64,000 bases of DNA, from the NCBI GenBank assembly GCA_965116495.1, contig OZ220696.1, positions 1,408,001-1,472,000 of the forward strand, read 5' to 3'. The position numbers and the translations under genes are program-made. The DNA comes from Gammaproteobacteria bacterium (GTDB taxonomy: Bacteria > Pseudomonadota > Gammaproteobacteria > Eutrophobiales > Eutrophobiaceae). The notes below the pieces were generated by a model. That model was not told where the DNA came from, did no database searches, and was given only the letters and a program-made list of their open reading frames with translations. Each line of letters opens with the position of its first letter. Position 1 is the first letter of the stretch. Below, piece after piece: positions 48,666 through 64,000 of the stretch.

Positions 48666-48697
48666 TCTATATAATAGAGTTTTCCGGGCAAGGAACT

Positions 48698-49885
48698 ATG
48701 AACAAGCGCAAGATCCTCATACTGGTGATTTCCGCCAGTTTCATCACCTTGATGTCAACGGACTTGTATATACCGAGTATGGCCCATATGCCGGGACTGC
48801 TCGGCACCAGCCCCGAACTGGTCAAGCTGACAGTCGGCCTCAACCTGCTGGGGTACGGTTTCGCCACCCTGCTTCACGGTCCGCTTTCCGAACGTTTCGG
48901 CCGCAGGCCGGTCCTGCTCTGCGGCATGGTCGGATTTACCCTGGCCAGCTTATTCTGCGCCCTTGCAGCCGATATAGGTCAACTGATAACGGCGCGGGTG
49001 TTCCAGGGCATCGCCGCTGCCGTGGAAGGCGTTGTTGTGCTGGCGATCATTCGCGATATTTTTTCGGAGAAGGAACAGGTACGGGCGATAGCCGTTTACG
49101 GCATCGCCACTGCACTTGCTCCCGCCATTGCTCCAGTATTGGGTGGTTATATCCACGTATATTTCGGCTGGAGGATGAATTTTTATTTACTCACATGCCT
49201 GGCGCTGGTGGTAACCGTGCTGCTGACCCTGTACCTGGACGAATCAAGCAAAAAGGATTATCACGCTCTTGACCTGAAGGAAATTTACTCTGACTATTTC
49301 AGTATACTCAGCAACAGGTCGTTCCTGATTTATGTCACCATCGGCGGCTGCAGCCTGGGCTGCATATTTGCCTTCATCACCGCAGCTCCGTTCATCCTGA
49401 TTACCAACCATGGCGTGCCGACCGAGCATTTCGGCTACTACCAGGGAGCCATCGTGCTGACCTTCGTTATCGGAAGCCTGGTCGCGGCCAGGATGACAAG
49501 GAAACAAGGGACCGGGGATATTTTACGCATAGGCGTTTACTCCGCAGCAGGCGGAGCCTTGTTGCTGCTGGCTATCATGGTAACTGGATGGGAGACTCCG
49601 GTCACGCTGACGTTTGCCGTGGCGCTGCTCACGTTCGCCGACGGGCCGATCTTTGCCGTGGTACCCACCCTGGCCATGAATTCAACCAGTAAAAGAACCG
49701 GCGCGGCGGCAGCCATGATCGTTGCCGCGGAGATGGCAATAGGCTCGGTTGCAGCACTGTTTCTCAGTTGGTTTCACGACGGCACGGCATGGCCGATGAT
49801 GATCACCATGCTGGGACTGGTGCTGGTTATCGTCCTGGCCTACATGAGCGGTGCGAAAGCAGCCGGTGCGGAAAATACCGGATAA
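48698..49885 (+). CDS. Bcr/CflA family MFS efflux transporter
   Basis: STDLYIPSM, GPLSERFGRRPVL, ARVFQG, APAIAPVLGG, about 12 TM segments. Confidence 0.9.
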   Translation: MNKRKILILVISASFITLMSTDLYIPSMAHMPGLLGTSPELVKLTVGLNLLGYGFATLLHGPLSERFGRRPVLLCGMVGFTLASLFCALAADIGQLITARVFQGIAAAVEGVVVLAIIRDIFSEKEQVRAIAVYGIATALAPAIAPVLGGYIHVYFGWRMNFYLLTCLALVVTVLLTLYLDESSKKDYHALDLKEIYSDYFSILSNRSFLIYVTIGGCSLGCIFAFITAAPFILITNHGVPTEHFGYYQGAIVLTFVIGSLVAARMTRKQGTGDILRIGVYSAAGGALLLLAIMVTGWETPVTLTFAVALLTFADGPIFAVVPTLAMNSTSKRTGAAAAMIVAAEMAIGSVAALFLSWFHDGTAWPMMITMLGLVLVIVLAYMSGAKAAGAENTG

Positions 49886-49951
49886 GTCCCGACTTTCCCC
49901 GGTATGCAATCACGGGGCTCAGCGACGATTTATACTCCCTGTTCTTATTGA

Positions 49952-50803
49952 CTATTCAGCCGTGACGCTTGCCCGGGCTGCAATTTCTCCGTCTGAACGC
50001 TGCACCTGCATGCTGATGGTATCTGCTCCTTCTGCTGTTGCAGAGAGACGGACAGGCTGATCGTCAAACAGCGGCGCCAGGGCGCGATATTCAAACCTGT
50101 TAATGTCCTTATCTGTGTGTTCCCTGACCAGTTGCAGCAATAGCATGGCTACCAGGGGGGCATGCACCACCAAGGCGGGATAGCCCTCCCCTGTCGCGGC
50201 GTAGGTCCTGTCGTAATGAATCTTGTGGCTGTTGAACGTCACGGCCGAGAAACGGAACAACATACCGGCATCCACGGTCAGTTCATGTGACCAGGTGTTC
50301 GCTCCCGGTTCCGCAAATGGCTTGACATCCGGCAGCGCCACAGGCGCTCCCTTGTCCCGGTAGACGATGTCCTGCTCCTCAACAACGCACAGGTTTCCCC
50401 GTTGCTTGAAACTGTTACGAATCCGGACGAATACCAAATCGCCGGACGCGCCGGATTTTTCAGTTATATCAATGACCTCTGACTCGCGTCCGGTCTCATG
50501 GCCGATGATTAACGGTTGCAGGAAATTCACCTTCATTCCGGCAAACAAGCGCCGGGGCAACGTTACGGGAGGAAGAAAACCGCCCCGTCTCGGATGGCCA
50601 TCCTCACCCAGGCCGGATTGGGGTACAGGTTTGATGGTAAAAACCCAGTGCCACAAAGGCGGCAGCCTGTCTCCTTCCCCATAGTCCGGCGCCGGTTCAT
50701 CCAGCGTTGCCGCGAGCCTGTTGACCTGGGCAGGGGTTATGATTTCGGCGCAGCGTTCAACCTTTGGGCGCCAGCCGGGAAACAGTTCGTTGAGTTGGGT
50801 CAT
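49952..50803 (-). CDS. meh: Double hot-dog hydratase, mesaconyl-C4-CoA / itaconyl-CoA hydratase family
   Basis: LPPLWHW, LGEDGHPRRGGFLPPV.LPRRLFAG, EEQDIVYR, LFRFSAVTFNSHKIHYD..Y...EGYP.LVVH.PL. Confidence 0.78.
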   Translation of the reverse strand: MTQLNELFPGWRPKVERCAEIITPAQVNRLAATLDEPAPDYGEGDRLPPLWHWVFTIKPVPQSGLGEDGHPRRGGFLPPVTLPRRLFAGMKVNFLQPLIIGHETGRESEVIDITEKSGASGDLVFVRIRNSFKQRGNLCVVEEQDIVYRDKGAPVALPDVKPFAEPGANTWSHELTVDAGMLFRFSAVTFNSHKIHYDRTYAATGEGYPALVVHAPLVAMLLLQLVREHTDKDINRFEYRALAPLFDDQPVRLSATAEGADTISMQVQRSDGEIAARASVTAE

Positions 50804-52632
50804 CGAATGTGTTTTTCCAGGTTTCCAGCTCGAACGCGTTTTCTTTCATACTCCTTTAGTAGTTTTTTTCGTAACCGGATATTGTCAGGTGTAACTTCCA
50901 CCAGTTCGTCGTCATTGATAAATTCCAGTGCCTGCTCCAACGAGAACTTCACGGGCGGGGTCAATAGAATATTGTCATCCTTGCCGGCAGCACGAATGTT
51001 GGTGAGTTGTTTGGCTTTGAGCGGATTAACCATAAGATCATTATCGCGGGAGTGGATGCCGACAATCATGCCTTCGTAAACATTCGTGCCGGGCTCTATC
51101 AGTAGCCGGCCGCGTGGCTGCAAGTTGAACAAGGGATAGGCCAGTGCCTTACCCTTACCGTTGGAAATCAGTACGCCATTGACTCTTTGATTGTTCAGCG
51201 TCGATTTTAACGGCCCGTAGTGGTCGAAAACATAATGCATCAGTCCTGTGCCTGCTGTTGCCGTCAGGTACTCAGTACGAAAACCGATGATACCGCGGGC
51301 GGGGATCAGGTAATCAAGCCTTATACGTCCCTTGCCGTCCGGCACCATGTCCTGCAAGCCGCCTCCGCGGGAACCCAGCAATTCCATAACGCTTCCCTGG
51401 TAACCGGCCTCCATATCGACGGTGAGTTGTTCATAGGGTTCGCATAATTGACCGTCGACATCCTTGATAATAACTTCAGGGCGCGAGACGCTGAACTCAT
51501 AACTTTCCCTGCGCATATTTTCTATCAGAATGGACAGGTGTAATTCGCCGCGACCGGAGACCCTGAACTTGTCGGAGTCGCCTGTTTCTTCAACGCGTAA
51601 GGCAACATTGTGTTTTAGTTCGCGGAACAATCGCTCGCTGAGTTGGCGCGAGGTGACGTATTTACCTTCCCGGCCGTTAAAAGGCGAGTCGTTGACCTGG
51701 AAGGTCATGGTGACCGTCGGTTCGTCAACGGTCAGTGGGGGTAAGGCTTCGACTGTATCCGGTTCACATAAGGTATCTGATATATCAAGTTCATCAATAC
51801 CGGCTATGGCGATAATATCGCCGGCAGACGCGCTGTTAATTTCAGTTCGTTCAAGACCGAGCAGACGAAACAGTTGCAGAATGCGTCCTCTGCGTATTTT
51901 ATTGTCTTTATCAATGATCGAAACAGGTGTATTGGATATCACTTTACCGCGGGTGATGCGGCCGATTCCAATTACCCCTATATAACTGTTGTAATCAAGT
52001 GCACTGACCTGAAATTGAAAAGCGCCATTTTCATTGACATCGGGCGCCGGGACTTTGGTTACGATAGTTTCAAATAATGCGGTCATGTCCTGGTCTTTAC
52101 AATCGGGATCAGGGCCGCTGTAGCCTTCTTTCGCGGATGTATATATCACCGGGAAATCCAGTTGTTCATCGCTGGCGCCAAGAAGATCAAATAAATCGAA
52201 GGTGCGGTGGAGCACCCAGTCAGGCCGCGCGCCGCTACGGTCAATCTTGTTTATTACGACGATAGGGGTCAGTTGGCGGGCCAATGCTTTTTGCGTGACA
52301 AAACGGGTTTGCGGCATCGGCCCCTCAACGGCATCGACCAGCAACAGCACTGAGTCGACCATAGACAAAATTCTTTCCACTTCTCCGCCAAAATCTGCGT
52401 GACCCGGGGTATCGATAATATTGATGCGATAGTCATTCCAGCGTAGCGCGGTATTCTTCGCCAGAATTGTGATGCCACGTTCTTTTTCGATGTCGTTGGA
52501 GTCCATGACGCGAACAGAACTCATGTCTCTCGCCTGCAGAGTGCCGGATTGTTTCAATAATTGATCCACCAGCGTCGTCTTGCCGTGATCTACATGGGCG
52601 ATAATAGCGATGTTACGAATTACTTCAGGCAT
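50800..52632 (-). CDS. typA: Translational GTPase TypA/BipA
   Basis: RNIAIIAHVDHGKTT, ERGITILAKN, DTPGHADFGGEVER, NKID, GRGELHL, KQLTNIRAAG, DELVEVTP. Confidence 0.97.
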   Translation of the reverse strand: MPEVIRNIAIIAHVDHGKTTLVDQLLKQSGTLQARDMSSVRVMDSNDIEKERGITILAKNTALRWNDYRINIIDTPGHADFGGEVERILSMVDSVLLLVDAVEGPMPQTRFVTQKALARQLTPIVVINKIDRSGARPDWVLHRTFDLFDLLGASDEQLDFPVIYTSAKEGYSGPDPDCKDQDMTALFETIVTKVPAPDVNENGAFQFQVSALDYNSYIGVIGIGRITRGKVISNTPVSIIDKDNKIRRGRILQLFRLLGLERTEINSASAGDIIAIAGIDELDISDTLCEPDTVEALPPLTVDEPTVTMTFQVNDSPFNGREGKYVTSRQLSERLFRELKHNVALRVEETGDSDKFRVSGRGELHLSILIENMRRESYEFSVSRPEVIIKDVDGQLCEPYEQLTVDMEAGYQGSVMELLGSRGGGLQDMVPDGKGRIRLDYLIPARGIIGFRTEYLTATAGTGLMHYVFDHYGPLKSTLNNQRVNGVLISNGKGKALAYPLFNLQPRGRLLIEPGTNVYEGMIVGIHSRDNDLMVNPLKAKQLTNIRAAGKDDNILLTPPVKFSLEQALEFINDDELVEVTPDNIRLRKKLLKEYERKRVRAGNLEKHIR

Positions 52633-52663
52633 TAGGCTCTGTGTGGGGTAAACAACCCGGTGA

Positions 52664-53887
52664 CTAATCAGCTGTAATGCCGGCAATGATTCCCCGGTCG
52701 TGCAGGCCGCCGATGGCGGCGGCGCTCAAACCCAGGATCGTGGCGAGTATCTCGTCGGTATCGGCGCCGAGTTGCGGCGCCGGTGTGACCTGTCGGCGCG
52801 GTTCCGCCTCAAAGCGCAGAGGTGAACCGGGCATCAGGTATTCACCGATACCGGGTTGCAGGACAGTTGAAAAAACAGGGTTCTTGTCAGAACAGCGCGG
52901 ATCATGGTCTACCAGTTCGGAAAAAGTCTGGTACGGCCCCCAACACACACCGTGGGAATCGAATATCGATGCCAATTCTGCAAGGTCATAGCGCGCACAC
53001 CAGGGTTCCAATAAACCGATTATGGAGTCCGTGGCCTGGTAACGATCACCTTCCCGGTCGAGTTTCAATCCGCGTCCGGTTTCTATCTTGTTAAACTCCT
53101 GCTCAAGTTGAGATGCCGTGATCAGGTTCCGCCATTGTCTGTGAGTGATGGCCACCAGCATGATCTCATGCCCGTCCCTGGTTTTAAAATTGTGGCCGAA
53201 CGCACCGTACAACCGGTTACCGATAGCCTGACGTTGTGCGCCATTGATTTGCGCTTCAGCGACATGTCCCAGGTTGCCGACCATGGAAAATGCAATATCC
53301 GACAGCGCCAGCCTGACCAGTTGGCCGGAACCGTTAAGTCGTCGTTGGCGCTCTGCGACTACCACTGCCAGCGCTGCATTGATGCCTGTCAGCGCATCCC
53401 AAGCCGGAAACATGTGGTTGACCGGCGCAGGATCATCTGCTGATCCTGTCGCATAGGGAATACCCGTTGCGGAATTGATGGTGTAGTCAACCGCACTGCC
53501 CCCATCGGGGGTTCCCTGTACCTGTACCATGATCAGGTCGTCACGCCGTTTCTTCAATGCCGTATAGTCCAGCCAGTCCGACTGCGGGAAGTTGGTCAGG
53601 AAAATCCCCGCGTTGGGGGCATCCCCGGTGATCAGTGAAACGGCGAGTTCTTTTCCTTCGGGGGAGCGTAAATCGATGGCAATAGAGCGTTTGCCCTTGT
53701 TCAGACCCGACCAGTACAGGCTTTGTCCCTGTTCTGTCACTGGCCAGCGCCGGTAGTCCAGTCCGCCACCAATCGGGTCAAAGCGTATGACATCCGCCCC
53801 CAGTTGCGCCAGGGTCATGCCCCCCAGCGGCGCAGCGACAAAGGCGGAGCCTTCAACGATGCGCAGGTCTTTCAGCAGGTCATACAT
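52664..53887 (-). CDS. mct: Family III CoA transferase, mesaconyl-CoA C1-C4 isomerase (Mct)-like
   Basis: VEGSAFVAAPLGGMTLAQLGADVIRFDPIGGGLDYRRWP, GLNKGKRS, AVDYTIN, PVNHMFPAWD; typical of the Mct subfamily. Confidence 0.82.
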   Translation of the reverse strand: MYDLLKDLRIVEGSAFVAAPLGGMTLAQLGADVIRFDPIGGGLDYRRWPVTEQGQSLYWSGLNKGKRSIAIDLRSPEGKELAVSLITGDAPNAGIFLTNFPQSDWLDYTALKKRRDDLIMVQVQGTPDGGSAVDYTINSATGIPYATGSADDPAPVNHMFPAWDALTGINAALAVVVAERQRRLNGSGQLVRLALSDIAFSMVGNLGHVAEAQINGAQRQAIGNRLYGAFGHNFKTRDGHEIMLVAITHRQWRNLITASQLEQEFNKIETGRGLKLDREGDRYQATDSIIGLLEPWCARYDLAELASIFDSHGVCWGPYQTFSELVDHDPRCSDKNPVFSTVLQPGIGEYLMPGSPLRFEAEPRRQVTPAPQLGADTDEILATILGLSAAAIGGLHDRGIIAGITAD

Positions 53888-53892
53888 AGGAG

Positions 53893-54043
53893 TATCCGCA
53901 GCACAAGCGCAGATTTACGCAGACTAAAATCAGTCTTTTGAGGAACAGGTAAAATCTATGATACATGCAACTGTATTTACGCTGATAAACACACGGTTTT
54001 TTTGTGTTCTTACCTGCGTAAATCTGCGCTTGTGCTGCGGATA
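53893..54043. repeat. Miniature inverted-repeat element (cgcagat-type arms)
   Basis: Perfect 30-bp IR tatccgcagcacaagcgcagatttacgcag (53893-53922) / 54014-54043 around an AT-rich core. Confidence 0.82.
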
Positions 54044-54058
54044 ATTCTCTCCTTTTTG

Positions 54059-54925
54059 TCAACTAGGCATCAGACCCAAGTCGAATTGCAGGTGGCTGAA
54101 CGGCACGGGAATGTTGTACCGGGCAGCCAGGTCGGCATCTTCGGACTCGGTGTAGCGGCCTATCAATGAACTCTTGGTGGCAAACACCGCGTCCGAGTCC
54201 AGGTATTCGTCGCCGTCGGAGAATACATGGGTCGTCAGCGACTCGTAGCCATCCGCGGAAACGATGAAATGGATATGCGCGGGACGCATGGCGTGACGGC
54301 CGCTGGCCCGGAGCAACTCACCAACGGGCCCGTCTGTCGGTACCGAATATGACAATGGTTTTTCCGTGACAAATGCATAGTTGCCCTCCGTGTCCGTGGT
54401 GAATATACCCCGCATATTATCTTCGGGCATTGAGTTATCCTGCACATCGTAGAAACCATTGGCCGCGGTTTGCCAGACGTCCAGTTTGGCGCCGGCTATC
54501 GGTTTGCCGTCCGGGTCCACCACCTTCCCTTGCACCAGTGCGACTTGCTCGGCATATTGCTGCTTTATGATGCTGGCGCCGCTCTCGTATTCCGGCGCGC
54601 CAGACACGTAAAATGGTCCCAGTACCGTGGACTCCGTCCCCTTGCCCGACTTGGGATGGTTGATCGCGTCCACCAGCATGGAGACGCCCATTACGTCTGA
54701 CAACAGGATAAATTCCTGGCGCTTGTCATCACAGGTCTGTCCAGTCCTGGTCAGGAACATGATGGCCTTGAACCATTCTTCTTCCGTCAACTCCACGTCC
54801 TTGACGAAAGCGTGCAGGTGTTTGAGCAGTGAAGTGATTATCTGCCTGAACCTGGGATCATCTGTTTTGGAGCCGTATTCCTCCAGAACGATTTCCGTTA
54901 AATTGTCGATGGTAAAATCACGCAT
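54059..54925 (-). CDS. Intradiol ring-cleavage dioxygenase (hydroxyquinol/catechol 1,2-dioxygenase family)
   Basis: RQEFILLSDVMG, TVLGPFY, GFYDVQ, RPAHIHF (Tyr/Tyr/His/His iron ligands), DSDAVF. Confidence 0.92.
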   Translation of the reverse strand: MRDFTIDNLTEIVLEEYGSKTDDPRFRQIITSLLKHLHAFVKDVELTEEEWFKAIMFLTRTGQTCDDKRQEFILLSDVMGVSMLVDAINHPKSGKGTESTVLGPFYVSGAPEYESGASIIKQQYAEQVALVQGKVVDPDGKPIAGAKLDVWQTAANGFYDVQDNSMPEDNMRGIFTTDTEGNYAFVTEKPLSYSVPTDGPVGELLRASGRHAMRPAHIHFIVSADGYESLTTHVFSDGDEYLDSDAVFATKSSLIGRYTESEDADLAARYNIPVPFSHLQFDLGLMPS

Positions 54926-54947
54926 GAGTAACCCCCATATGGATATT

Positions 54948-55226
54948 TCAGTAACTGATAACTATATCTTCCAAAGGCGTGACAGAGCACGGCAACATGC
55001 CTCCGTTATCTAGATTCGCCGGGTCAATGGTAGCATACCTTGACAAGGGCCGGAGCGATGTAACGCTACCTTTGAGCAAGCGCACACGGCAGGTCATGCA
55101 GCGGCCCTGTTGACAGCCGCAGGTCAACTGGTGCCCGGCCGCGTAAGCAGACTTCAGTATCGAGGCCTTCTCCCTGCAAAAAAATTCAACCGGCCCGGCA
55201 TCGGAAACCAGTGTCACCTTGTACAT
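54948..55226 (-). CDS. Plant-type [2Fe-2S] ferredoxin
   Basis: CQQGRCMTC...LPC motif; starts 1 nt after the DUF1329 stop. Confidence 0.85.
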   Translation of the reverse strand: MYKVTLVSDAGPVEFFCREKASILKSAYAAGHQLTCGCQQGRCMTCRVRLLKGSVTSLRPLSRYATIDPANLDNGGMLPCSVTPLEDIVISY

Positions 55227-55227
55227 C

Positions 55228-56526
55228 TCAGCGCCCTTTGGCGCGCAACGCCTGCACGGTGAAATCCGTCTCGCGAAATGGCTTCTCCGGCAATATCGCC
55301 TTGAATTGCAAGGTGGTGCAGTGCAGTGCCTGGATATCTATCATGGAGACCGCATCGATGATCGGGACGCCCATACCCCGGTTGGAAAGGTGATGTCGGT
55401 CCGGGTGGGAATATGCGGCCATGGCGACCTTCCACAGGTTGCCGGGCTTGTCGAAGATGTGACCATAGACCGGCAGCATAGTCTGGGCATCCAGGTAATA
55501 CCGTCGCTTTGACAACGGATGTTGTTTCCAGTAAGGCTCAGCCTCCAATATGTAGGCCTTGCGCACGTGCCAGGTGACGTTCGGAAAACAATTGCCTTTA
55601 CCGTGAAAACCGATGAATTTGAATCCATCAAGCTGCTGACCGGCTTCCTCCAATGGTTGCTCGTCGTGGTTAAAGAAAGGTAGCAGGACCCAGGTGACTC
55701 CCTTGTAAGTCCATTTCTGGTCCATGATGCGGCCGTTATAGCCGAGAAAATCCTCAATCATGATATCGCTGCCCAGGAAGGCATCAGTAGTCTGTCCTGA
55801 CGCCAGGCGCCGGACGCGCCGGTGGCCGGAAAGATAAAGCCAGACCTGTTCCTGCTTGGTGTCGTCTTCCAGGCGTTGCACCAGCAATTGCGTGCCGCGT
55901 ATATCGGGCGGGGCCAGCACCTTCAGGTACAACGCATGGTAGATCTGTGATGGATTTCTGGGCATGGACGGAACAGGGTCCTGTACATGCCGGTGCATGA
56001 ACTTCATGGAACTTGCATAGAAGGACAACTGCCTTTCAATCCTGTTATTTCGCATATCCCGGTACTGCCAGTAAAAGCTGGCCACCTCGCCACTGTCGTA
56101 TGAGTAGGTATAACGCAGGTTCCAGGCCAGCTTGTCGCCAGCCCTGGGATCATCCGGTTGCGGTTCCCTGGGGAACGGCCTGCCTGCTACGTAATTACGG
56201 ATAATCCCTGGTTGTTCCCCAAGTTCGGTCGTATCCAGGTAGCGCTTTGTAGCCTCGAGGTAGGCCGGATGTGTAGGAATAGACAGGGCCTCGCTGGTGG
56301 TGATGGTTAAAAATTCATCACCGATCAACTCAACGAGCTTCGGCGCCAGGATATTGCTGAAAGATGCAACATTCTCTTTTGTGATGACCGTGCCCGGCGC
56401 GGGATTGAGCGATGCAATTTTTTCAGGGTCAACGGCAAACGACTGTTCGACAATGTCTGCCGTCACCACGGGGGGATTAACCAGCAGGCAGAAAAACAAT
56501 GTACGAGTCAGGGTTTGCAATGTCAT
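55228..56526 (-). CDS. DUF1329 family periplasmic protein (paralogue 2)
   Basis: AGRPFP...GDKLAWN, WLYLSGHRRVRRL, GSDIMIEDFLGYNG. Start set at ATG 56526 because the upstream ORF extension is repeat-derived. Confidence 0.85.
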   Translation of the reverse strand: MTLQTLTRTLFFCLLVNPPVVTADIVEQSFAVDPEKIASLNPAPGTVITKENVASFSNILAPKLVELIGDEFLTITTSEALSIPTHPAYLEATKRYLDTTELGEQPGIIRNYVAGRPFPREPQPDDPRAGDKLAWNLRYTYSYDSGEVASFYWQYRDMRNNRIERQLSFYASSMKFMHRHVQDPVPSMPRNPSQIYHALYLKVLAPPDIRGTQLLVQRLEDDTKQEQVWLYLSGHRRVRRLASGQTTDAFLGSDIMIEDFLGYNGRIMDQKWTYKGVTWVLLPFFNHDEQPLEEAGQQLDGFKFIGFHGKGNCFPNVTWHVRKAYILEAEPYWKQHPLSKRRYYLDAQTMLPVYGHIFDKPGNLWKVAMAAYSHPDRHHLSNRGMGVPIIDAVSMIDIQALHCTTLQFKAILPEKPFRETDFTVQALRAKGR

Positions 56527-56556
56527 GATTACTTGTATAAGACGTATGTTTTTTAT

Positions 56557-56781
56557 GCCACAGAGGACACAGAAATGTATTTTTGCCATTCCTGTCATTC
56601 CCGCCATTCCTGTCATTCCCGCCACTCCTGTCATTCCCGCCATTCCTGTCATTCTGGCGAATGCCAGAATCCAGTCAAAAAATTATTCATTATTTATAAG
56701 GTACATTTGTTTGCCGGATTCCGGGTCAAGCCCGGAATGACGTCTATTGGCTAACTCTGTGTCCTCTGTGTCCTCTGTGGC
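56557..56781. repeat. Nested repeat elements
   Basis: Outer IR gccacagaggacacaga / tctgtgtcctctgtggc encloses 8 tandem nonamers (gYcaYtcYN, 56585-56656) and a dRS3-like pair ending ccggattccgggtcaagcccggaatgac. Confidence 0.8.
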
Positions 56782-56790
56782 TTTAACGGT

Positions 56791-58368
56791 TTAATCTGCG
56801 GCATCTGCGGATTTTTTCATGAACAAATTCACGTCATGGGGATTGACAAGGTCTGCCACTGTCCAGCCGTTAACGTCGTATTCGTCCATGCACTGCTGGG
56901 CAAAGTCCTTGAGTTGCTTGTCCAGGCCGGTGCCCTGCGCATTCCATAGCGCCTCAATCCGGATGTTTTCGTTATTGCCGGAGTAATTGCGCTCATACAG
57001 TTCATGGCGGCCGCCGAATTCGGTGCCTATGGCATCCCACAACAGGCGCATGGTCTTGACCCTGTCTTCCGCGTCGTGGCCGTATGAACCGCGCAGGTAT
57101 TTATCCAGGTAACCTTTCAATTCCGGCACATTAAAATCCGAAGCATGGGAGTTCAGGTAAATCAGGCCGCTGGCGACCATGTTCTCGATCAACTCTTTCG
57201 CCCGGGGGTAGGCCATGGTCATCAGCACCCGGTACACATGGCCGGCGTGGCCGTTCGGTACTTTCGCCCCCTTGAAATCGTCGGGCATGCCACACATGGC
57301 GTCCGATAACGCCCAGAACAGGTGCCGCCAGACGATCATTTCACCGATTGCCACCTGCACGCCGCGAAAATCCTTGGTGCCGGTGATCTCCAGGGCTTTC
57401 ATGAATAAGCCAGTGATAAAATCAAACTTGACTGCGAGACGGGTGCAACCGTGAAAGGCAAACGTGTAGGCCCAGCCGGATGTGCCCAAGAAAGTGCTGG
57501 CCGCGTCCAGGTCCTCGTAGATAAAGATATCCTCCCAGCGCATCAGGGCATTGTCCAGTATCAATATCGCGTCGTTTTCATCCAGCCGGCTTGACAGCGG
57601 GTTATCGAACGGACTGCCCATTACTTCCGCGGCATACGAATAAGAAGGACGGCACAGCAGCTTGACACCGGGGGTGTTCATTTTCAACATGCCGCTGATG
57701 GCAAAGCGTTTATCCTTCACGGGTATCGGCCCGTACTGGCCGAGGAAATTGTAATGGGTCAATGCCGACCCGGTAGCCACCACCTTGGCGCCGGAGATAA
57801 TAATGCCTTCGTCGGTTTCCCTGACGCAGTGCATATAAACGTCTTCTATCTCCTCGTGGGATTTATTGCGGTCTACCGGGGGATTGACCAGGGCATGATT
57901 CAGGAAAGGCACGCGTTCCTGGGCATTCCTGTACCAGCTCCGGGCGTTGCCGGCATAATCACCGAAGTACTCCGGGTTAAACCCCAGGGTCAGCATAAGG
58001 CTGGCCTTGTAGTCAGGGGTACGTCCCATCCAGCCATAGGTCAGGCGCGCCCATTGGGCAATCGCTTCACGTTGCGCAATCACGTCCTCACGCGTGCGCG
58101 CCACCTTGAAATAGGGGTGGGTAAAACCGCCGTTGCCGGTATCCGTAGCGGTGCGCAGGTGCGGGTATTCCTTCTCGTTATGCAACGCGTTATACAGCCG
58201 CGCCATCATCCTGGCAGGATTGCGAAACGCTGGATGCTCCGTTACGTCTTTCACGCGCTCGCCGTAGATCCAGATTTCCCGGTCGTCTTTCAGGTCCGCC
58301 AGAAATTCATCGCCGGTATACGGACGAACATTGTTTTCCATATCTTCTTTCTCGGGCATGCCACTCAT
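56791..58368 (-). CDS. Two-component flavin-dependent phenolic hydroxylase, oxygenase subunit (HpaB/PheA1/PvcC family)
   Basis: GERVKDVTEHPAF, GWMGRTPDY, NHALVNPPVDR, SGAKVVAT, PLSSRLDENDA, EFGGRHELYE. Confidence 0.92.
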   Translation of the reverse strand: MSGMPEKEDMENNVRPYTGDEFLADLKDDREIWIYGERVKDVTEHPAFRNPARMMARLYNALHNEKEYPHLRTATDTGNGGFTHPYFKVARTREDVIAQREAIAQWARLTYGWMGRTPDYKASLMLTLGFNPEYFGDYAGNARSWYRNAQERVPFLNHALVNPPVDRNKSHEEIEDVYMHCVRETDEGIIISGAKVVATGSALTHYNFLGQYGPIPVKDKRFAISGMLKMNTPGVKLLCRPSYSYAAEVMGSPFDNPLSSRLDENDAILILDNALMRWEDIFIYEDLDAASTFLGTSGWAYTFAFHGCTRLAVKFDFITGLFMKALEITGTKDFRGVQVAIGEMIVWRHLFWALSDAMCGMPDDFKGAKVPNGHAGHVYRVLMTMAYPRAKELIENMVASGLIYLNSHASDFNVPELKGYLDKYLRGSYGHDAEDRVKTMRLLWDAIGTEFGGRHELYERNYSGNNENIRIEALWNAQGTGLDKQLKDFAQQCMDEYDVNGWTVADLVNPHDVNLFMKKSADAAD

Positions 58369-58395
58369 ATCAATCTCTTTAATAAAATATTTTTG

Positions 58396-58570
58396 TCCGC
58401 AGATGACGCAGATGAACGCAGATTAAAATAAAGATAAGAAACTGTAGATAGAAACTAAAGACTCATAATCGGATAGATTATTTCAGTTACTATAAAGACT
58501 TGTTTTTATCTGCGTTCATCTGCGTCATCTGCGGATATATTCTTACATACCGTCATCTGCGGACAAAAAA
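58396..58570. repeat. Miniature inverted-repeat element (cgcagat-type arms)
   Basis: Perfect 28-bp IR tccgcagatgacgcagatgaacgcagat (58396-58423) / 58508-58535 plus a partial extra arm. Confidence 0.82.
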
Positions 58571-58582
58571 CCTGCGGATAAA

Positions 58583-60817
58583 TCACTTCATCCGGGCCTT
58601 GTATTCTTCCGGACTTTCCGCGCTTTTGTATTTCTGCACCGCTATCTTCCTGTGCAGGATAACCGGTTGTTCCGAGACCGGCGGCGATGCTATATCTGCC
58701 GGGTAACAGCCCATGGTTTGCTTTTCCGGATCCATGTTCGTGCGTGTAGAGAACTGGCGTTTGTTGGTTCGCTTTGCCGGGATGATATTGCCCTGCTCGT
58801 CCGAATCCAGGTCCCACCACCATTTCTTTACCGGGTTGATCAGACCGTTACCCACCTTGTCGTCCAGCCTGGCGATCCACTTCCGGGTGAACGGCAGGTT
58901 CATGGCCGCCCACAGGAATGGTCTCTCGGACAGTACCCCTTCAATATTCCATGGACAGGTTTTCATGCAACGGCCGCACAACGCTCCGGCAGAATTGGTG
59001 ATGCGGTAGCGGGCACACTTTTCCACGTCCGGCTTCCACATTTCATAGCCGTTGAACATGATTTTGTTACCGTAGGGGATCGCCTGACACGGGCATTCCC
59101 TGGCGCACTTGGTGCATTTCTCACAGAAATCCTGCAAACCGAAATCTATGGGTTTATCCGGCAGCAACGGCAGGTCGGTCGTGATGATGCCCGATTTGAA
59201 ACGCGGCCCGACGTAGGGGTTTAACACCAGTTCACCAATCCGGCTCAACTCGCCCAGACCGGCTTCCAGTATAATCGGTATATGCAGTACGTCCTGGTCC
59301 ATCACGCTGTGGCCGCGGGCAGAATAACCCAGGGAACGGATATGCGCGCCGACAACACCCCCAATCAATTGCGCGCGCAAGTAGGCGCGCATACTCTGTG
59401 CGCCGCTGATCCAGTCATCCCCGCTGGCCCCTTCCATGGTCTCGTACCCCTGGTCCACCAGGATTGCGATCCCGTATTTGTGGTACGGCTTTATCTCCGA
59501 ACCATCCGTATCATGGGAGTACCATACATATTCGGGCAACTGACAGATTCCCACCATGTCCGCACCCATGTAATACAAAGCCGCCTTAATCGCTTCTGCG
59601 TTTTTCTTCGGGTCGTCTGTCCCCGGTGCGATTTCATCCGCCTCTTTGCCATATTGCAGCGGGACCATGGCGCCCAGGGGCGGTATCATGGCGTGGCCGT
59701 ATGGCGACTTGGTGATCATGCGAAAGTTTTCCAGTTCCTTTTGCGGCTTTTTCCCCAGGTCGCCCAGGGCAGCCCGGAGAAACATGTCATGCCGTTTCGG
59801 TATGCGCGGCACGTTTGGCTTGTCAATAAGAGTCGTGGTGGTTTCCTGCGGTTTTAGATTTTCCATTGGATAAGGCCCCAGGTGAAGCGGCCTGTTTTTG
59901 AATAACCTGCCCTTGTAACCGGGCCGCGCCCCGCCCAATCCCAACCACCAGCCCGGACCATGGGATTTCAGGGAATCCATAAACCCCCTGCCGGCCAGGG
60001 GTTCGTCAGCAGCAAGCTCCATGGTCGTAGAAACCACGGCCATGCCGAATTGATCGCCCAGGTAGGGATTGCTGACAGTACTGCTGCCGTTCCTGCCGTT
60101 AACCTCACCCAGACCGCTGCAAAGCAACAGGTAATCAAGAGCAACGTCGCTTGCCGTTGCCGTGTGCAATGTTGCTTCAAATCCCAGGAAACGGATGTAA
60201 TTCACCATGACCGCAGCCGCTTCGGCAACCCTGACTGCTGCCCGTTGCGCCTGGGTACCGACCAGCCAGGCTTCGCTATCAGTGCGGGGGTCCGGTTCCC
60301 TGGTGTACTCGACCAGTAACACCAGCGCAAAGCCGTGGTTGAACTCCTTTGCAGAGTCCTGCAGGGATCGCTGCCAGGCTTCCTGGCCTTCCCTGACGGT
60401 GGTCTCAGCCATTACGTTAGTCGCCGAGCCGGCCTGGTATTCCTTTTCCTGGGCCTGCGCCAGGGACTCATTGATGATGGGCTGCGCCAGTATCGCCTGT
60501 TCCGGAATGGCGCAGGTTGCTGCCATACTGACGTCGAGGTTATAGCAGCCGGCCTTCAGGTGGTCGGCCCGCTCCTGCGGGTCTGACGGAATGGGCGCCT
60601 GCTCAGGTACAGGCTCTCCCAGGCGCATGCGGTCGAACAGGTCGATATACTCGCGAAACGCTTCAGCCATGGATGCCGGGTTGGACGATTCAGTTGTATC
60701 CTCGGCACGATGTTTCCCGGAGGGCGAATATTCAGGTATTGAATCCTGCCGGGCAAGCCGTTCCAGTGGAAATGGGCCCAGGTGCATAGCCCGTTTTTTA
60801 TGGGAAAAGAGGCGCAT
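58583..60817 (-). CDS. rdhA: Catabolic cobalamin-dependent reductive dehalogenase (NpRdhA/BhbA-type, no fused reductase)
   Basis: Internally duplicated HLGPF/YPxE.L motifs, SGDDWISGAQSMRAY, AGLGELSRIGE..LNPYVGPRFKS, FCEKCTKCARECPC and CGRCMKTCPW (two [4Fe-4S]), KKWWWDL; no Tat signal. Confidence 0.9.
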   Translation of the reverse strand: MRLFSHKKRAMHLGPFPLERLARQDSIPEYSPSGKHRAEDTTESSNPASMAEAFREYIDLFDRMRLGEPVPEQAPIPSDPQERADHLKAGCYNLDVSMAATCAIPEQAILAQPIINESLAQAQEKEYQAGSATNVMAETTVREGQEAWQRSLQDSAKEFNHGFALVLLVEYTREPDPRTDSEAWLVGTQAQRAAVRVAEAAAVMVNYIRFLGFEATLHTATASDVALDYLLLCSGLGEVNGRNGSSTVSNPYLGDQFGMAVVSTTMELAADEPLAGRGFMDSLKSHGPGWWLGLGGARPGYKGRLFKNRPLHLGPYPMENLKPQETTTTLIDKPNVPRIPKRHDMFLRAALGDLGKKPQKELENFRMITKSPYGHAMIPPLGAMVPLQYGKEADEIAPGTDDPKKNAEAIKAALYYMGADMVGICQLPEYVWYSHDTDGSEIKPYHKYGIAILVDQGYETMEGASGDDWISGAQSMRAYLRAQLIGGVVGAHIRSLGYSARGHSVMDQDVLHIPIILEAGLGELSRIGELVLNPYVGPRFKSGIITTDLPLLPDKPIDFGLQDFCEKCTKCARECPCQAIPYGNKIMFNGYEMWKPDVEKCARYRITNSAGALCGRCMKTCPWNIEGVLSERPFLWAAMNLPFTRKWIARLDDKVGNGLINPVKKWWWDLDSDEQGNIIPAKRTNKRQFSTRTNMDPEKQTMGCYPADIASPPVSEQPVILHRKIAVQKYKSAESPEEYKARMK

Positions 60818-60887
60818 GTCAATTAATCCGCAGATGTATGTCAATAAACAGTCGGGATATATGGGGTCAGATCCGTCCCCTGATAAC

Positions 60888-61478
60888 TTATTTCCTCAAT
60901 CCAAGTTCGCTTAAATGGTCATGGACGAAATCAATCCTGTCGTTGCCCCAGAAGATCTGGTCGTCAATGACGAATGTCGGCACGCCGATGACGCCGGATT
61001 CCTGTGCCTCATGCCAGTTGTCTTCGAGGATCTTCTGCCTGGCCGGATCATTCAGTGATGCGCTGAACTCATCGGGGTCGAGGCCGCTCTGACGGGCGAT
61101 GTCCACCAGTGTATCGGGCTGGCCGATATCCACTCCCTGCCCCCATTCGGTATCCATCACATTGATAACATATTCCCGCAAACAGCCTTTCTCTTCTGCC
61201 AGCAGGGAGCCGATACCTGCCGGTGTCGGGTCTGTGGTAATGGGTGGGGGGATACAGGGAATATTCATCCGCTTTGCCCAGCGGGCCACGTCCTGGCGGG
61301 TAATGGGTATCTTGACCTTGGCCCGGTCCGGCGCCGAGCGCCCGTTCCACCCGGCCAGGGGCTTCCAAATGAAATTGACATGGTAGTCATCCACCAGGCT
61401 GAACATCGTCTTGCTGGCGAGATAACAATAGGGACTGCGGAAATTGAAGAAAAACTTTAGATCAACGTTCTGTATCAT
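60888..61478 (-). CDS. 2-hydroxychromene-2-carboxylate isomerase / kappa-class GST (DsbA fold)
   Basis: FFFNFRSPYCYLA, DVARWA, GVIGVPTFVIDDQIFWGNDR. Confidence 0.85.
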   Translation of the reverse strand: MIQNVDLKFFFNFRSPYCYLASKTMFSLVDDYHVNFIWKPLAGWNGRSAPDRAKVKIPITRQDVARWAKRMNIPCIPPPITTDPTPAGIGSLLAEEKGCLREYVINVMDTEWGQGVDIGQPDTLVDIARQSGLDPDEFSASLNDPARQKILEDNWHEAQESGVIGVPTFVIDDQIFWGNDRIDFVHDHLSELGLRK

Positions 61479-61494
61479 CGGATCGAAAATAACC

Positions 61495-61565
61495 GGGGAC
61501 AGGTTTAAATCTGTCCCCAATACACCTGGCGAAATATCCGGGGACAGATTTAAACCTGTCCCCGG
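61495..61565. repeat. Pair of REP-like palindromes
   Basis: ggggacaggtttaaatctgtcccc and ccggggacagatttaaacctgtccccgg, mutually inverted; same family as 45533-45558. Confidence 0.8.
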
Positions 61566-61576
61566 TAAACTCCATG

Positions 61577-62884
61577 CTATCTACCGCTCTTGCGCAGGTT
61601 CTGCACCGTGAACATCTGCGGCGGGTTCAACGTGGGATCAAGCTGTCCCTTGAACTGGCCGGTGGTGCAGTGTTTGGCCTGTACGTCATACATCATGAAG
61701 CAGTCGTCGATGGCGACGCCGGACCCCTTGTTCTTGGGCATGTGGTTGTCCGGGTAGGCCTGGCAGATGGAGAAGGATTTCCACAGGTCGCCCTTGCGAT
61801 CGAACTCAGCCTGGCGCGGAATGGTATAGGTCTGTGCGTCAATATACATCTCGCGGCGGCTTAACGGGTGGTTCGGATCCTTGGGTGTGCCATGCAGTTC
61901 ATAGACCTTGCGCAGTTCCCAGGTGGTCTTGGGGTAGCAACCATCCACGTCCACAAACTGGTAGCCGTCCGGTTCCGGCGGCATGTCGGTAGCCAGTTCC
62001 AGTTCATTATGGTTGTGGAACGGCAGGAAGGCGTTTTTGGCGCCGACAAATTTCCAGTTGTAGTCGGACACGCGGTTATTGTAGCCTTCAAAGTCTTCGA
62101 TCATGATATCCGTGCCCAGGAAAGCGTCCGTGGTCTGGCCGGTAGCGAGACGGCGTACACGCCGTTGAAAACCCAGGTACAACCAGGCGTCATCACGCTT
62201 CAGGTCATTCTTGTAGCGGTGAATGAGAAGCTGGGTGTTGGCGATATCGAACGGCTCCAAGGCCCGGACGTAAATCGACCGGAACAATTCAGCCGGATTG
62301 TCGGTAAATTCCGGGGTGGGTTCCTGGTTGACCCGGTGTTTCCAGTTCAGGAAGTGGAAGCTCCACTTGATGGTGCGCTCCAGCTTGCCGCTCTTGGCAT
62401 TCCTGAATTTCCAGTAAAACGGCGAGATGGCCGCGTTGTCACCCCAGTTATAGCCGTACTGGTAATTCCAGGCCATTTTCAGACCCGCCTGGGGATCATT
62501 GGGGTCCGGTTCCTTGGGGAAGGCCCGGCCGGCCACGAAATTGTCCACCAGGCCGTCAGCGCTGAGGCCGGGCGGGTTGTTCACCGCATCCATGGTGACC
62601 TTGATGTAGTTCGGGTGCAGCACCAGGGAATCCGTCTCCTTGGTCTGCAAGGACGTCTCACCGTTCTTGATGTGGTCGTACAGCGCCGGGTCAAGAATCT
62701 CCTTGAACTGCTCCACGTTGCCCTGGTCTATGACCATGCCGGGGGTGTAACCCGCGAACTCCGGCGTCCAGTTTTCATACGGATAAAACGAATTCCTTAC
62801 GTCATCCTCGGTGAAATCGGCCGAGACTGCCAGACTCAGGGCAACCAGCGGCATAACAGCAAGATACTTTACATACTTAAACAT
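61577..62884 (-). CDS. DUF1329 family periplasmic protein (paralogue 1)
   Basis: Signal peptide, AGRAFP...GLKMAWN, WLYLGFQRRVRRLATGQTTDAFLGTDIMIEDFEGYN. Confidence 0.87.
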   Translation of the reverse strand: MFKYVKYLAVMPLVALSLAVSADFTEDDVRNSFYPYENWTPEFAGYTPGMVIDQGNVEQFKEILDPALYDHIKNGETSLQTKETDSLVLHPNYIKVTMDAVNNPPGLSADGLVDNFVAGRAFPKEPDPNDPQAGLKMAWNYQYGYNWGDNAAISPFYWKFRNAKSGKLERTIKWSFHFLNWKHRVNQEPTPEFTDNPAELFRSIYVRALEPFDIANTQLLIHRYKNDLKRDDAWLYLGFQRRVRRLATGQTTDAFLGTDIMIEDFEGYNNRVSDYNWKFVGAKNAFLPFHNHNELELATDMPPEPDGYQFVDVDGCYPKTTWELRKVYELHGTPKDPNHPLSRREMYIDAQTYTIPRQAEFDRKGDLWKSFSICQAYPDNHMPKNKGSGVAIDDCFMMYDVQAKHCTTGQFKGQLDPTLNPPQMFTVQNLRKSGR

Positions 62885-62914
62885 GATGATTAAGCCTCCT
62901 TCCTGTAAATATTA

Positions 62915-64000
62915 TTAGAAGCGATAGCGGAGCAGAACTTGAAATTCATCTTCGTGCTGCGCCATGCCGAGGGGACCGGAACGGAAACGACCCAGTGGTT
63001 CGAAGCCTCTGCGGATTCCCAGGCTGGAAAATTCATTACCAGGAAGGCAAGGTGCGACACTGTCTGGCGGGGCGCATGCCGGGCCGGCGGTAAATGGCGG
63101 ATACGTATTAGATGTACGACCATCGTCAGCCACCCTGCGACCACTACCAAACTTGATATTGGCGCCGAAGATCAAACGCAGGTTATCGTTGATCAGGTAG
63201 TCTACGCCCGGGGCTATTACGGTTGCCTTGGCGCGGAAATCACGCGCCATAATGATGCGCGGCAGCACCCGGTCATTCCTGAAGAAACCCTGGAACAGGA
63301 AGGTGCCGATATAGCCGTTCTGCCAGTCCTGGAAACCTATCTGTTCCCCGGTCAGGGGATGACTGATTGATTTATGGTCAAGCAGGTGCTGACCGAATAT
63401 CTGCGCGGAGAGCAGGAAGGTCCGGTTCGGGTTCAGCCAGCGGATATAGGTGGGACGATCCCAGCCTATTACCCATCGTATCACGTCTGACTCGGAGTTC
63501 AGGTCAGATACCGAGGTATCGGCAAATTCCTCACCACTGGTATGAGCCATCTCCACCCGAAATGCAGATTTTAACGGATCAACGTAAAAGTCAGCCGAGC
63601 CACCTACCAGGGTGACACGCGGGAAATAAATATCAAATGCCGGCAGATAGGGTCTGGGTTTGTATGCGCCGCCCACTTCAGTCGGGTCAGGCACAATAGG
63701 ATGACCTACGCCAGGCGCCAGAAACGGATTCACTGCGGGTATCCCACCACGTAATGCCGGTAGTTGAGAGTAAAACGTCATGGCGTTGACGGAGAAACCC
63801 ACACTCCTGAACACGCCTTCAAGCCTCACACCGCCTTGGTCAAAATCCCAGCCAGGCATATGGACATCCCGGATGCCGATAGTATTGGCAGGGAAATCGG
63901 TAGACAGATTACCACCTGGGACCAGGCCGGTGGCAAAGTTACTGACGGTACAGCCATTATCCCAGCAGTTCTTCAAGGACCGGAACAGGTCACCGGCCAG
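62915..64000 (-). CDS. DUF1302-like outer-membrane beta-barrel protein (5' end outside window)
   Basis: Frame open to the window edge, amphipathic beta-strands, C-terminal ...QVLLRYRF, directly upstream of DUF1329. Confidence 0.75.
   Translation of the reverse strand: MAGDLFRSLKNCWDNGCTVSNFATGLVPGGNLSTDFPANTIGIRDVHMPGWDFDQGGVRLEGVFRSVGFSVNAMTFYSQLPALRGGIPAVNPFLAPGVGHPIVPDPTEVGGAYKPRPYLPAFDIYFPRVTLVGGSADFYVDPLKSAFRVEMAHTSGEEFADTSVSDLNSESDVIRWVIGWDRPTYIRWLNPNRTFLLSAQIFGQHLLDHKSISHPLTGEQIGFQDWQNGYIGTFLFQGFFRNDRVLPRIIMARDFRAKATVIAPGVDYLINDNLRLIFGANIKFGSGRRVADDGRTSNTYPPFTAGPACAPPDSVAPCLPGNEFSSLGIRRGFEPLGRFRSGPLGMAQHEDEFQVLLRYRF

Follow-up and report, generated by a model that had tools for sequence, protein, structure and literature searches.

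An NpRdhA-type reductive dehalogenase in the tail of a predicted phenol meta-cleavage operon of an uncultured gammaproteobacterium

We analysed a 64,000-nt window (G000:C1:1408001-1472000; contig OZ220696.1) of the genome of a Gammaproteobacteria bacterium, here G000 (4.34 Mb, single contig, completeness 99.5%), at one end of which a gene for a reductive dehalogenase, RdhA, lies among genes for aromatic catabolism. We propose, with a probability of roughly 60%, that these genes form the downstream end of a phenol meta-cleavage operon, in which an oxygen-tolerant RdhA of the NpRdhA type would remove bromine or chlorine from the position ortho to a phenolic hydroxyl and pass its product to hydroxylation and meta-cleavage, and in which an added oxygenase–dioxygenase pair would supply a second exit. 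All parts come from known families; the novelty lies in how they are combined and in the spread of this combination across a genus of uncultured bacteria, the close relatives carrying the label of Gammaproteobacteria metagenome-assembled genomes (MAGs; G and L numbers below denote relatives' genomes and loci). A literature search that reached few subscription papers and no supplements found no report of an RdhA within a dmp-type operon.

To judge from its sequence and phylogeny, RdhA (58583..60817, minus strand; 744 aa; likely start the ATG at 60817, which aligns with NpRdhA residue 1) is a catabolic, reductase-less enzyme of the NpRdhA type, and dehalogenation is its predicted activity. The protein scores 207.6 bits on the profile TIGR02486 (cut-off 160.35) and 27.5 on the QueG profile TIGR00276 (cut-off 200), and its best solved match is NpRdhA, end to end (E ~1e-174). 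It has no twin-arginine translocation (TAT) motif or membrane helix (maximum 19-residue hydropathy 1.23), a duplicated, vestigial B12-binding domain (24.6% identity between the N- and C-terminal halves over 301 columns, E 2.6e-20) and two 4Fe-4S motifs, at 565 and 601. Its residues S475, Y479, K541 and R603 correspond to S422, Y426, K488 and R552 of NpRdhA, which are described as binding the hydroxyl of an ortho-halophenol and donating a proton (PMC7565698). The C-terminal phthalate-dioxygenase-reductase domain is missing, the protein ending where NpRdhA ends, while BhbA extends to 1071 aa. In a tree of 53 out of 87 rows, NpRdhA itself not among them, RdhA falls into a 47-row catabolic clade with BhbA (support 100/99; weak within the clade), apart from two respiratory enzymes and from four short Rdh-like proteins of G000, which bears out the clade assignment of the initial annotation. 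Its suggestion that the lack of a reductase is novel does not hold: a reductase-less clade defined by NpRdhA is already described in PMC10463259, according to which its physiological donor has not been reconstituted and every catabolic RdhA characterised so far has ortho-halophenols as substrates. K307 was considered as a marker for benzoate substrates and proved uninformative, BhbA lacking it too and the alignment register there being ambiguous. For the cofactor, G000 carries cobT, S, D/CbiB, C, U and Q and a Btu-like transporter, and CobN was not found, in a survey from which the anaerobic ring genes were left out; this set would fit cobamide salvage.

G000 has seven Rdh-like genes, and genus members with any match have 2–10 each. 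A second long RdhA (G000:C1 2732399-2737215), in which the residue equivalent to R552 is Asn, lies directly behind three BbdI/LigF-like glutathione S-transferase (GST) genes, and a third (4156145-4158409), whose type, counted together with others, occurs in 40 of 125 family genomes, is flanked by a solute-symporter-like gene on one side and paa-like genes on the other. The four short proteins (322-363 aa; 689333-690301, 991301-992275, 2266294-2267385 and 3702794-3703795) score under the reductive dehalogenase cut-off and form a long branch of their own; they have no TAT motif and carry Tyr and Arg at the Y426 and K488 positions, as respiratory enzymes do. In another member of the genus, an additional RdhA in a 1115-codon frame (L095, G016:C4:48937-51156) groups with BhbA and is probably of the fused, self-sufficient type.

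The eight genes that the initial annotation had placed in one co-oriented run, with their families, are all present with profile matches, intact and free of internal stops, on the minus strand and in the order given there. Its limit at position 64,000 is merely the window end, which cuts the DUF1302 gene: ten further co-oriented genes were counted upstream, and the eight are the 3′ half of a longer run whose 5′ part lies outside the window. Transcription order is a GST, a GlcG-like protein, DmpC, DmpE, DmpF, DmpG, DmpH, a Ycf48-like protein, an RND transporter, DUF1302, DUF1329 a, a kappa-class GST, RdhA, the HpaB-type oxygenase, DUF1329 b, a ferredoxin and a dioxygenase, that is, 17 genes after a divergent GntR gene, or 18 with a co-oriented CoA-transferase gene downstream. 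Co-transcription is likely, because the intergenic gaps span only -4 to 264 bases, palindromic elements scattered genome-wide fill those within the window that are longer, and the same gaps shrink to overlaps in relatives. A promoter and terminator scan gave a signal no higher than in shuffled sequence. Six genes compared with four relatives gave dN/dS of 0.04-0.18 (crude Nei–Gojobori).

The setting of phenol catabolism, already suspected in the initial annotation, is supported by dmpCEFGH in the same run: all five products exceed their NCBIfam cut-offs, and DmpF and DmpG are single-copy in G000. The operon encodes the dehydrogenase branch of the meta pathway, which is used for phenol and para-substituted phenols. 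Catechol 2,3-dioxygenase (C23O), present in 20/22 genus genomes, and phenol hydroxylase are encoded outside the operon in G000, at 575-589 kb, C23O lying 0.9 Mb away. RdhA, with salvaged cobamide and a cytoplasmic electron donor, would convert 2-bromo- and 2,6-dibromophenol to phenol, and 2,4-di- or 2,4,6-tribromophenol to 4-bromophenol. Either the Dmp phenol hydroxylase, whose genes lie outside the operon, or the operon's own PheA/NphA-type enzyme would then yield catechol or a 4-halocatechol, whose ring would be opened by C23O (adjacent to the operon in a sister genus) and the product completed by the operon's DmpC, H, E, G and F. Meta-cleavage of 3-chlorocatechol inactivates C23O by yielding a suicide product (PMC3975901), and removal of the ortho halogen first would bypass 3-halocatechols.

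Two other loci of G000 touch this pathway. At 569000-589400 (L091/L092), a second DUF1302/DUF1329/RND/Ycf48-like module faces a DmpR-like regulator and is followed by two multicomponent monooxygenases, a XylT-like ferredoxin and C23O; at 3334668-3336987 (L094) lie a 2-aminophenol 1,6-dioxygenase-like pair and a deaminase-like gene, the products of which would also need the operon's dmpC/H.

Comparison with relatives separates the run into modules. The gene order kappa-GST–RdhA–HpaB–DUF1329–dioxygenase, whose conservation the initial annotation had anticipated, recurs in 15/79 RdhA loci, all close kin with RdhA identities of 83-97%. Rdh-like genes occur in 21/22 other genus genomes, with a full-length ortholog in 18, one cut by a contig end and one internally deleted; HpaB is found in 19/22 genus genomes. 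In G006 (98% complete), which keeps RdhA, the HpaB slot holds a FAD monooxygenase, a PcpA-type dioxygenase, maleylacetate reductase, an O-demethylase-like gene and a CoA-transferase, and in G013 HpaB–DUF1329 b–dioxygenase lies ~14 kb away. G141, of the sister genus, has in one block phenol hydroxylase, C23O, GntR, GST, GlcG, dmpCEFGH, Ycf48, RND, DUF1302, DUF1329 a, kappa-GST, RdhA and DUF1329 b, with HpaB absent; in G074 RdhA faces dmp–C23O genes. The simplest reading would be a phenol meta-cleavage backbone on which RdhA is optional and HpaB with the dioxygenase a genus add-on, the order of events being unrooted.

More distant members of the same RdhA group point the same way. Among 18 such loci, a dmp hydroxylase with C23O occurs in 4, aminophenol dioxygenase in 4, PcpA in 4, maleylacetate reductase in 3 and kappa-GST in 5. 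At least one of these ring-degradation genes (kappa-GST not counted) is found in 9/18 distant loci against 0/44 other loci, and GST-family genes in 6/18, compared with 1/44 other loci and 13/197 22-kb windows of G000; these counts are descriptive, with no test applied, because part of the queries derived from the same loci, several of these are short and close relatives are not independent of one another, which lowers their weight for our proposal.

The added pair comprises a two-component flavin monooxygenase, oxygenase part (56791..58368; 525 aa; HpaB_N and HpaB domains), and an intradiol dioxygenase (54059..54925; 288 aa; Dioxygenase_N and C). The oxygenase is of the PheA1/NphA1/AphA/SgcC type: it matches SgcC at E 1e-189 and E. 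coli HpaB at 1e-177, is far from HadA/TftD (1e-28), and scores 672.6 on the HpaB equivalog TIGR02310, under the cut-off of 885.2. Its catalytic R116, Y120 and H158 (positions from PMC6710988) are invariant across 18 rows. At the para-substituent site, which is His-Tyr in PheA/NphA/AphA and Ser-Thr in 4-hydroxyphenylacetate hydroxylase (PMC6710988), it has Gln211-Tyr212, nearer the phenol type, not identical to it. PheA1 is described as accepting phenol, 4-chlorophenol and resorcinol, and not 4-hydroxybenzoate (PMC6165268). No flavin reductase gene adjoins hpaB, and the genome's two PF01613 genes are both distant. Outside the genus, 2/103 family genomes have an HpaB match at E 1e-150 (55% identity), and RdhA or the dioxygenase lies near 1 of 80 metagenome hpaB loci, that one belonging to a close relative. 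In L018 (12296-19958), tandem copies of hpaB (two) and the dioxygenase (three) may reflect amplification or an assembly error.

For the dioxygenase, the intradiol family given in the initial annotation stands and the type is corrected to hydroxyquinol 1,2-dioxygenase: it matches PnpC at E 3e-86 versus catechol 1,2-dioxygenase at 8e-45, its top five PDB matches include PnpC, 8R2X, 8R2W and 1TMX, and its score on TIGR02439 (catechol 1,2-dioxygenase) is 209, under the cut-off of 392. G000 has no match to CatC, and its best CatB score is 38.5 (cut-off 334.95). Maleylacetate reductase, found in 13/15 genus genomes searched, is encoded in G000 at 2.70 Mb with a PcpA-type dioxygenase and a fused 3-oxoacid CoA-transferase, unlinked to the operon; in G141 a 75% ortholog of the dioxygenase shares an operon with maleylacetate reductase, 3-oxoacid CoA-transferase and another monooxygenase. 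Because of the hydroxyquinol-type relatives, the lack of CatC or of CatB over cut-off, the presence of the reductase and the G141 operon, the dioxygenase most likely leads to maleylacetate rather than to muconate. In the second exit, then, hydroquinone- or resorcinol-type products would pass through hydroxyquinol to maleylacetate by the operon's dioxygenase, for reduction by the maleylacetate reductase encoded elsewhere. Some hydroxyquinol dioxygenases have an extradiol side activity; the idea that the intradiol enzyme replaces C23O in this way is unneeded, as C23O is present in the genome, and the literature search gave no match for it. The 2.70-Mb locus (L090, G000:C1 2698667-2703327) comprises TetR, a short FAD monooxygenase remnant, the PcpA-type dioxygenase, maleylacetate reductase and the fused CoA-transferase. 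The FAD monooxygenase of G006, whole in 4/22 genus genomes and a fragment in G000, was considered as PcpB and set aside, with no close named match.

These findings bear on the single chain of import, dehalogenation, hydroxylation and ortho cleavage that the initial annotation had envisaged, which is not supported, given the lower meta pathway in the run, the CatC and CatB results and the independent loss of RdhA and of HpaB with the dioxygenase in relatives. A related alternative, which we regard as unlikely, is a dedicated route from RdhA through HpaB to the dioxygenase, taking for example 2,6-dibromohydroquinone or 4-halophenol to hydroxyquinol and maleylacetate. It would account for the adjacency of the three genes in the 15 close loci, with gaps down to overlap, for the occurrence of HpaB and the dioxygenase in the same 19 genus genomes and for the different maleylacetate-forming module at the same place in G006; the hydroxyquinol route is described (PMC3727088; PMC3975901), also for 4-chlorophenol (PMC3975901). 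However, neither HpaB nor the dioxygenase occurs in any of the 18 distant loci, G003 keeps both with RdhA deleted while G006 and G017 show the reverse, and the G141 dioxygenase is partnered with a different monooxygenase.

The electron donor was sought among the neighbours of RdhA. The kappa-class GST/HCCA-isomerase-like protein (60888..61478, likely start 61478; 196 aa; PF01323, DSBA; 2IMD, E 3e-18) shares the fold family of HCCA isomerases and only 33% identity with a NahD-like protein, in a run without naphthalene upper-pathway genes. Its proposed role in place of a reductase, or as any partner of RdhA, is not supported, given the complete genomes G070 and G071, which have it without a long RdhA, and its retention in G137 without RdhA; occurring in 21/22 genus genomes and 30/125 family genomes, it appears to belong to the phenol-operon backbone. 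The [2Fe-2S] ferredoxin (54948..55226; 92 aa; Fer2) is a poor donor candidate, because its gene follows the neighbouring CoA module: it is found in 6/15 close loci (five whole, one remnant), all with the downstream CoA-transferase, while 8/15 have neither (two of them ending soon after the dioxygenase) and one has the CoA-transferase alone. In G141 the ferredoxin is contiguous with CoA-transferase, MaoC and acyl-CoA dehydrogenase genes in an operon away from RdhA. Two distant loci speak the other way, with a ferredoxin homolog (46-47%) 6-9 kb from RdhA and none of the CoA-module genes. Neither protein, then, would be a good substitute for the missing reductase. In the window, the CoA module (47001-53887) consists of a 2-methylfumaryl-CoA isomerase-like CoA-transferase, a MaoC-like dehydratase and an acyl-CoA dehydrogenase and is interrupted by bipA and an MFS gene. 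In one distant locus, L015 (6959-9936), a 2-oxoacid:ferredoxin oxidoreductase pair directly upstream of RdhA is a possible low-potential electron source.

Several observations weigh against the proposal of ortho dehalogenation feeding meta-cleavage. No electron donor for RdhA was identified, the operon having no reductase gene, and the ferredoxin is basic (pI 8.6) and found in only 3/15 genus genomes searched. RdhA is, as the relatives indicate, dispensable to the operon: G003 keeps all genes and has lost ~1350 bases of the rdhA core, in G137 the block that begins with GntR contains no RdhA, and in G136 and G139 both RdhA and the transporter are absent at the locus. HpaB is arguably not halogen-specific, because its nearest outside relatives (67-69%) belong to gene clusters for polycyclic aromatics that contain no RdhA. 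Some strains and C23O enzymes tolerate 3-chlorocatechol (PMC3975901), and G000 also encodes PobA- and LigB-like proteins, which belong to the pathway that follows BhbA. The GST with which the run opens has 35.6% identity to BbdI, a glutathione-dependent thiolytic dehalogenase (PMC8460812), and LigF, a beta-etherase, as its best solved match; a match of ~35% is insufficient to fix its function and serves as a lead only. A bolder version of our proposal, in which the operon represents an undescribed aerobic strategy for natural bromophenols (reduce, then meta-cleave), with B12- and glutathione-dependent dehalogenases joined to dmp, an electron donor unlike that of NpRdhA and the genus, with its 2–10 Rdh-like genes per genome, as a specialist scavenger of organobromines, is put forward tentatively, and we would sooner doubt it than assert it.

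Less probable still is that the genes share only an aromatic-responsive promoter, with RdhA acting on halo-hydroxybenzoates or bromotyrosine-derived acids or serving detoxification, and PobA/LigAB or efflux as the exit. The substrates of NpRdhA and BhbA, which are halo-4-hydroxybenzoates, the PobA- and LigB-like genes, the exporter described for a similar envelope cassette and the readiness with which the operon gains and loses genes all lend it something; the RdhA group nevertheless recurs, in more than one arrangement, beside genes for phenol hydroxylase, for C23O and for dioxygenases of aminophenol and hydroquinone, in a neighbourhood survey whose query set contained no PobA or LigB. That RdhA reduces something other than a carbon–halogen bond, as pocket differences from NpRdhA at F290, A419 and N452 and the total of seven Rdh-like genes, a high number in an aerobe, might hint, is very improbable given the full catalytic set and the grouping with BhbA.

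The envelope genes of the run, DUF1302, DUF1329, Ycf48-like and RND together, make up an AmeABCD-type gene set. They include, on the minus strand, the 3′ part of a DUF1302 outer-membrane protein (AmeA-like; 62915..64000; PF06980; whole gene 680 aa, start 957 bases outside the window), the DUF1329 periplasmic protein a (AmeB-like; 61577..62884; 435 aa, N-terminus hydrophobic; PF07044, 226.6 bits) and the DUF1329 periplasmic protein b (55228..56526; 432 aa; 42% identity to copy a; directly after RdhA in G141 and L032). The RND protein scores 127 bits on TIGR00921, under the cut-off of 351.9. The initial annotation read DUF1302/DUF1329 as an uptake system; one characterised DUF1302/DUF1329/RND cassette, AmeABCD, is described as an exporter (PMC6394551), and an esterase or cell-wall role has been suggested for DUF1302/DUF1329 (bioRxiv 2020.07.04.188060). 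The module may move hydrophobic aromatics in either direction.

Repeats occupy the gaps of the run. RdhA and hpaB are separated by a palindromic element of a dispersed kind (58390..58569; core word 34 copies in the genome; in 15 relatives this gap measures -22 to 214 bases). A repeat scan found nested palindromes together with 9-bp tandem repeats between hpaB and DUF1329 b (56552..56786), and the gap from DUF1329 a to the kappa-GST holds a pair of REP-like inverted repeats (61487..61570; core word 26 exact genome copies). Dispersed palindrome families also occupy 53888-54048, core words having 3-34 exact genome copies, and false open reading frame starts result; for DUF1329 b the likely start is 56526, the start of the longer frame being a 9-bp tandem repeat.

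The substrates of the catabolic RdhAs characterised so far are halogenated hydroxybenzoates and related phenolics. If the present RdhA debrominates simple bromophenols before a meta pathway, the operon would be an aerobic sink for marine bromophenols. It would explain how a meta pathway escapes poisoning by 3-halocatechol, and the cell could likely grow on natural halophenols without poisoning its ring-opening enzyme. The natural gain and loss variants (G003, G006, G137 and G141) would then be useful for tracing the physiological donor of reductase-less RdhAs.

The closest known enzyme is NpRdhA of Nitratireductor pacificus pht-3B (PDB 4RAS, 6ZXU), which the present RdhA resembles in length, duplicated B12 domain, two 4Fe-4S motifs, the S422/Y426/K488/R552 set and the lack of both a TAT signal and a fused reductase. 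It differs in its pocket (F290M, A419G, N452V and a two-residue insertion near 307-311) and in its place in a phenol meta-cleavage operon, whereas NpRdhA adjoins a ferredoxin reductase and two ferredoxins (PMC10463259). BhbA (WP_015585978; 44% identity), in the bhb cluster of Comamonas sp. 7D-2, likewise joins a catabolic RdhA to ring-cleavage genes in an aerobic route, but has 1071 aa with a fused reductase and protocatechuate 4,5-dioxygenase neighbours in place of dmp. Cytosolic rdhA-like genes are also known from marine MAGs, with other neighbours (PMC12219181). The upstream GST shares with BbdI (Aminobacter MSH1, pBAM2) a similar N-terminal S-x-C-S-Q-K-V-R site, but no glutathione reductase gene stands beside it, and three other G000 GSTs are about as close (31-35%). 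AmeABCD of Castellaniella defragrans groups DUF1302, DUF1329, Ycf48-like and HAE3/MMPL-like RND genes in the same manner (PMC6394551), while the present run has another gene order, a second DUF1329 and a phenol rather than a monoterpene context. The hydroxyquinol routes (cph of Arthrobacter chlorophenolicus A6, PnpC, had/tft) similarly combine a monooxygenase with hydroxyquinol 1,2-dioxygenase to reach maleylacetate; here the monooxygenase belongs to a kind other than HadA/TftD, and maleylacetate reductase is unlinked in G000. Finally, the Rhodococcus aph pathway couples a two-component hydroxylase of the HpaB-type family to a meta pathway, with no dehalogenase described in the available text (PMC6710988); the present operon differs from it in carrying RdhA, and from the dmp and aph pathways alike in having C23O 0.9 Mb off and no flavin reductase beside the oxygenase.

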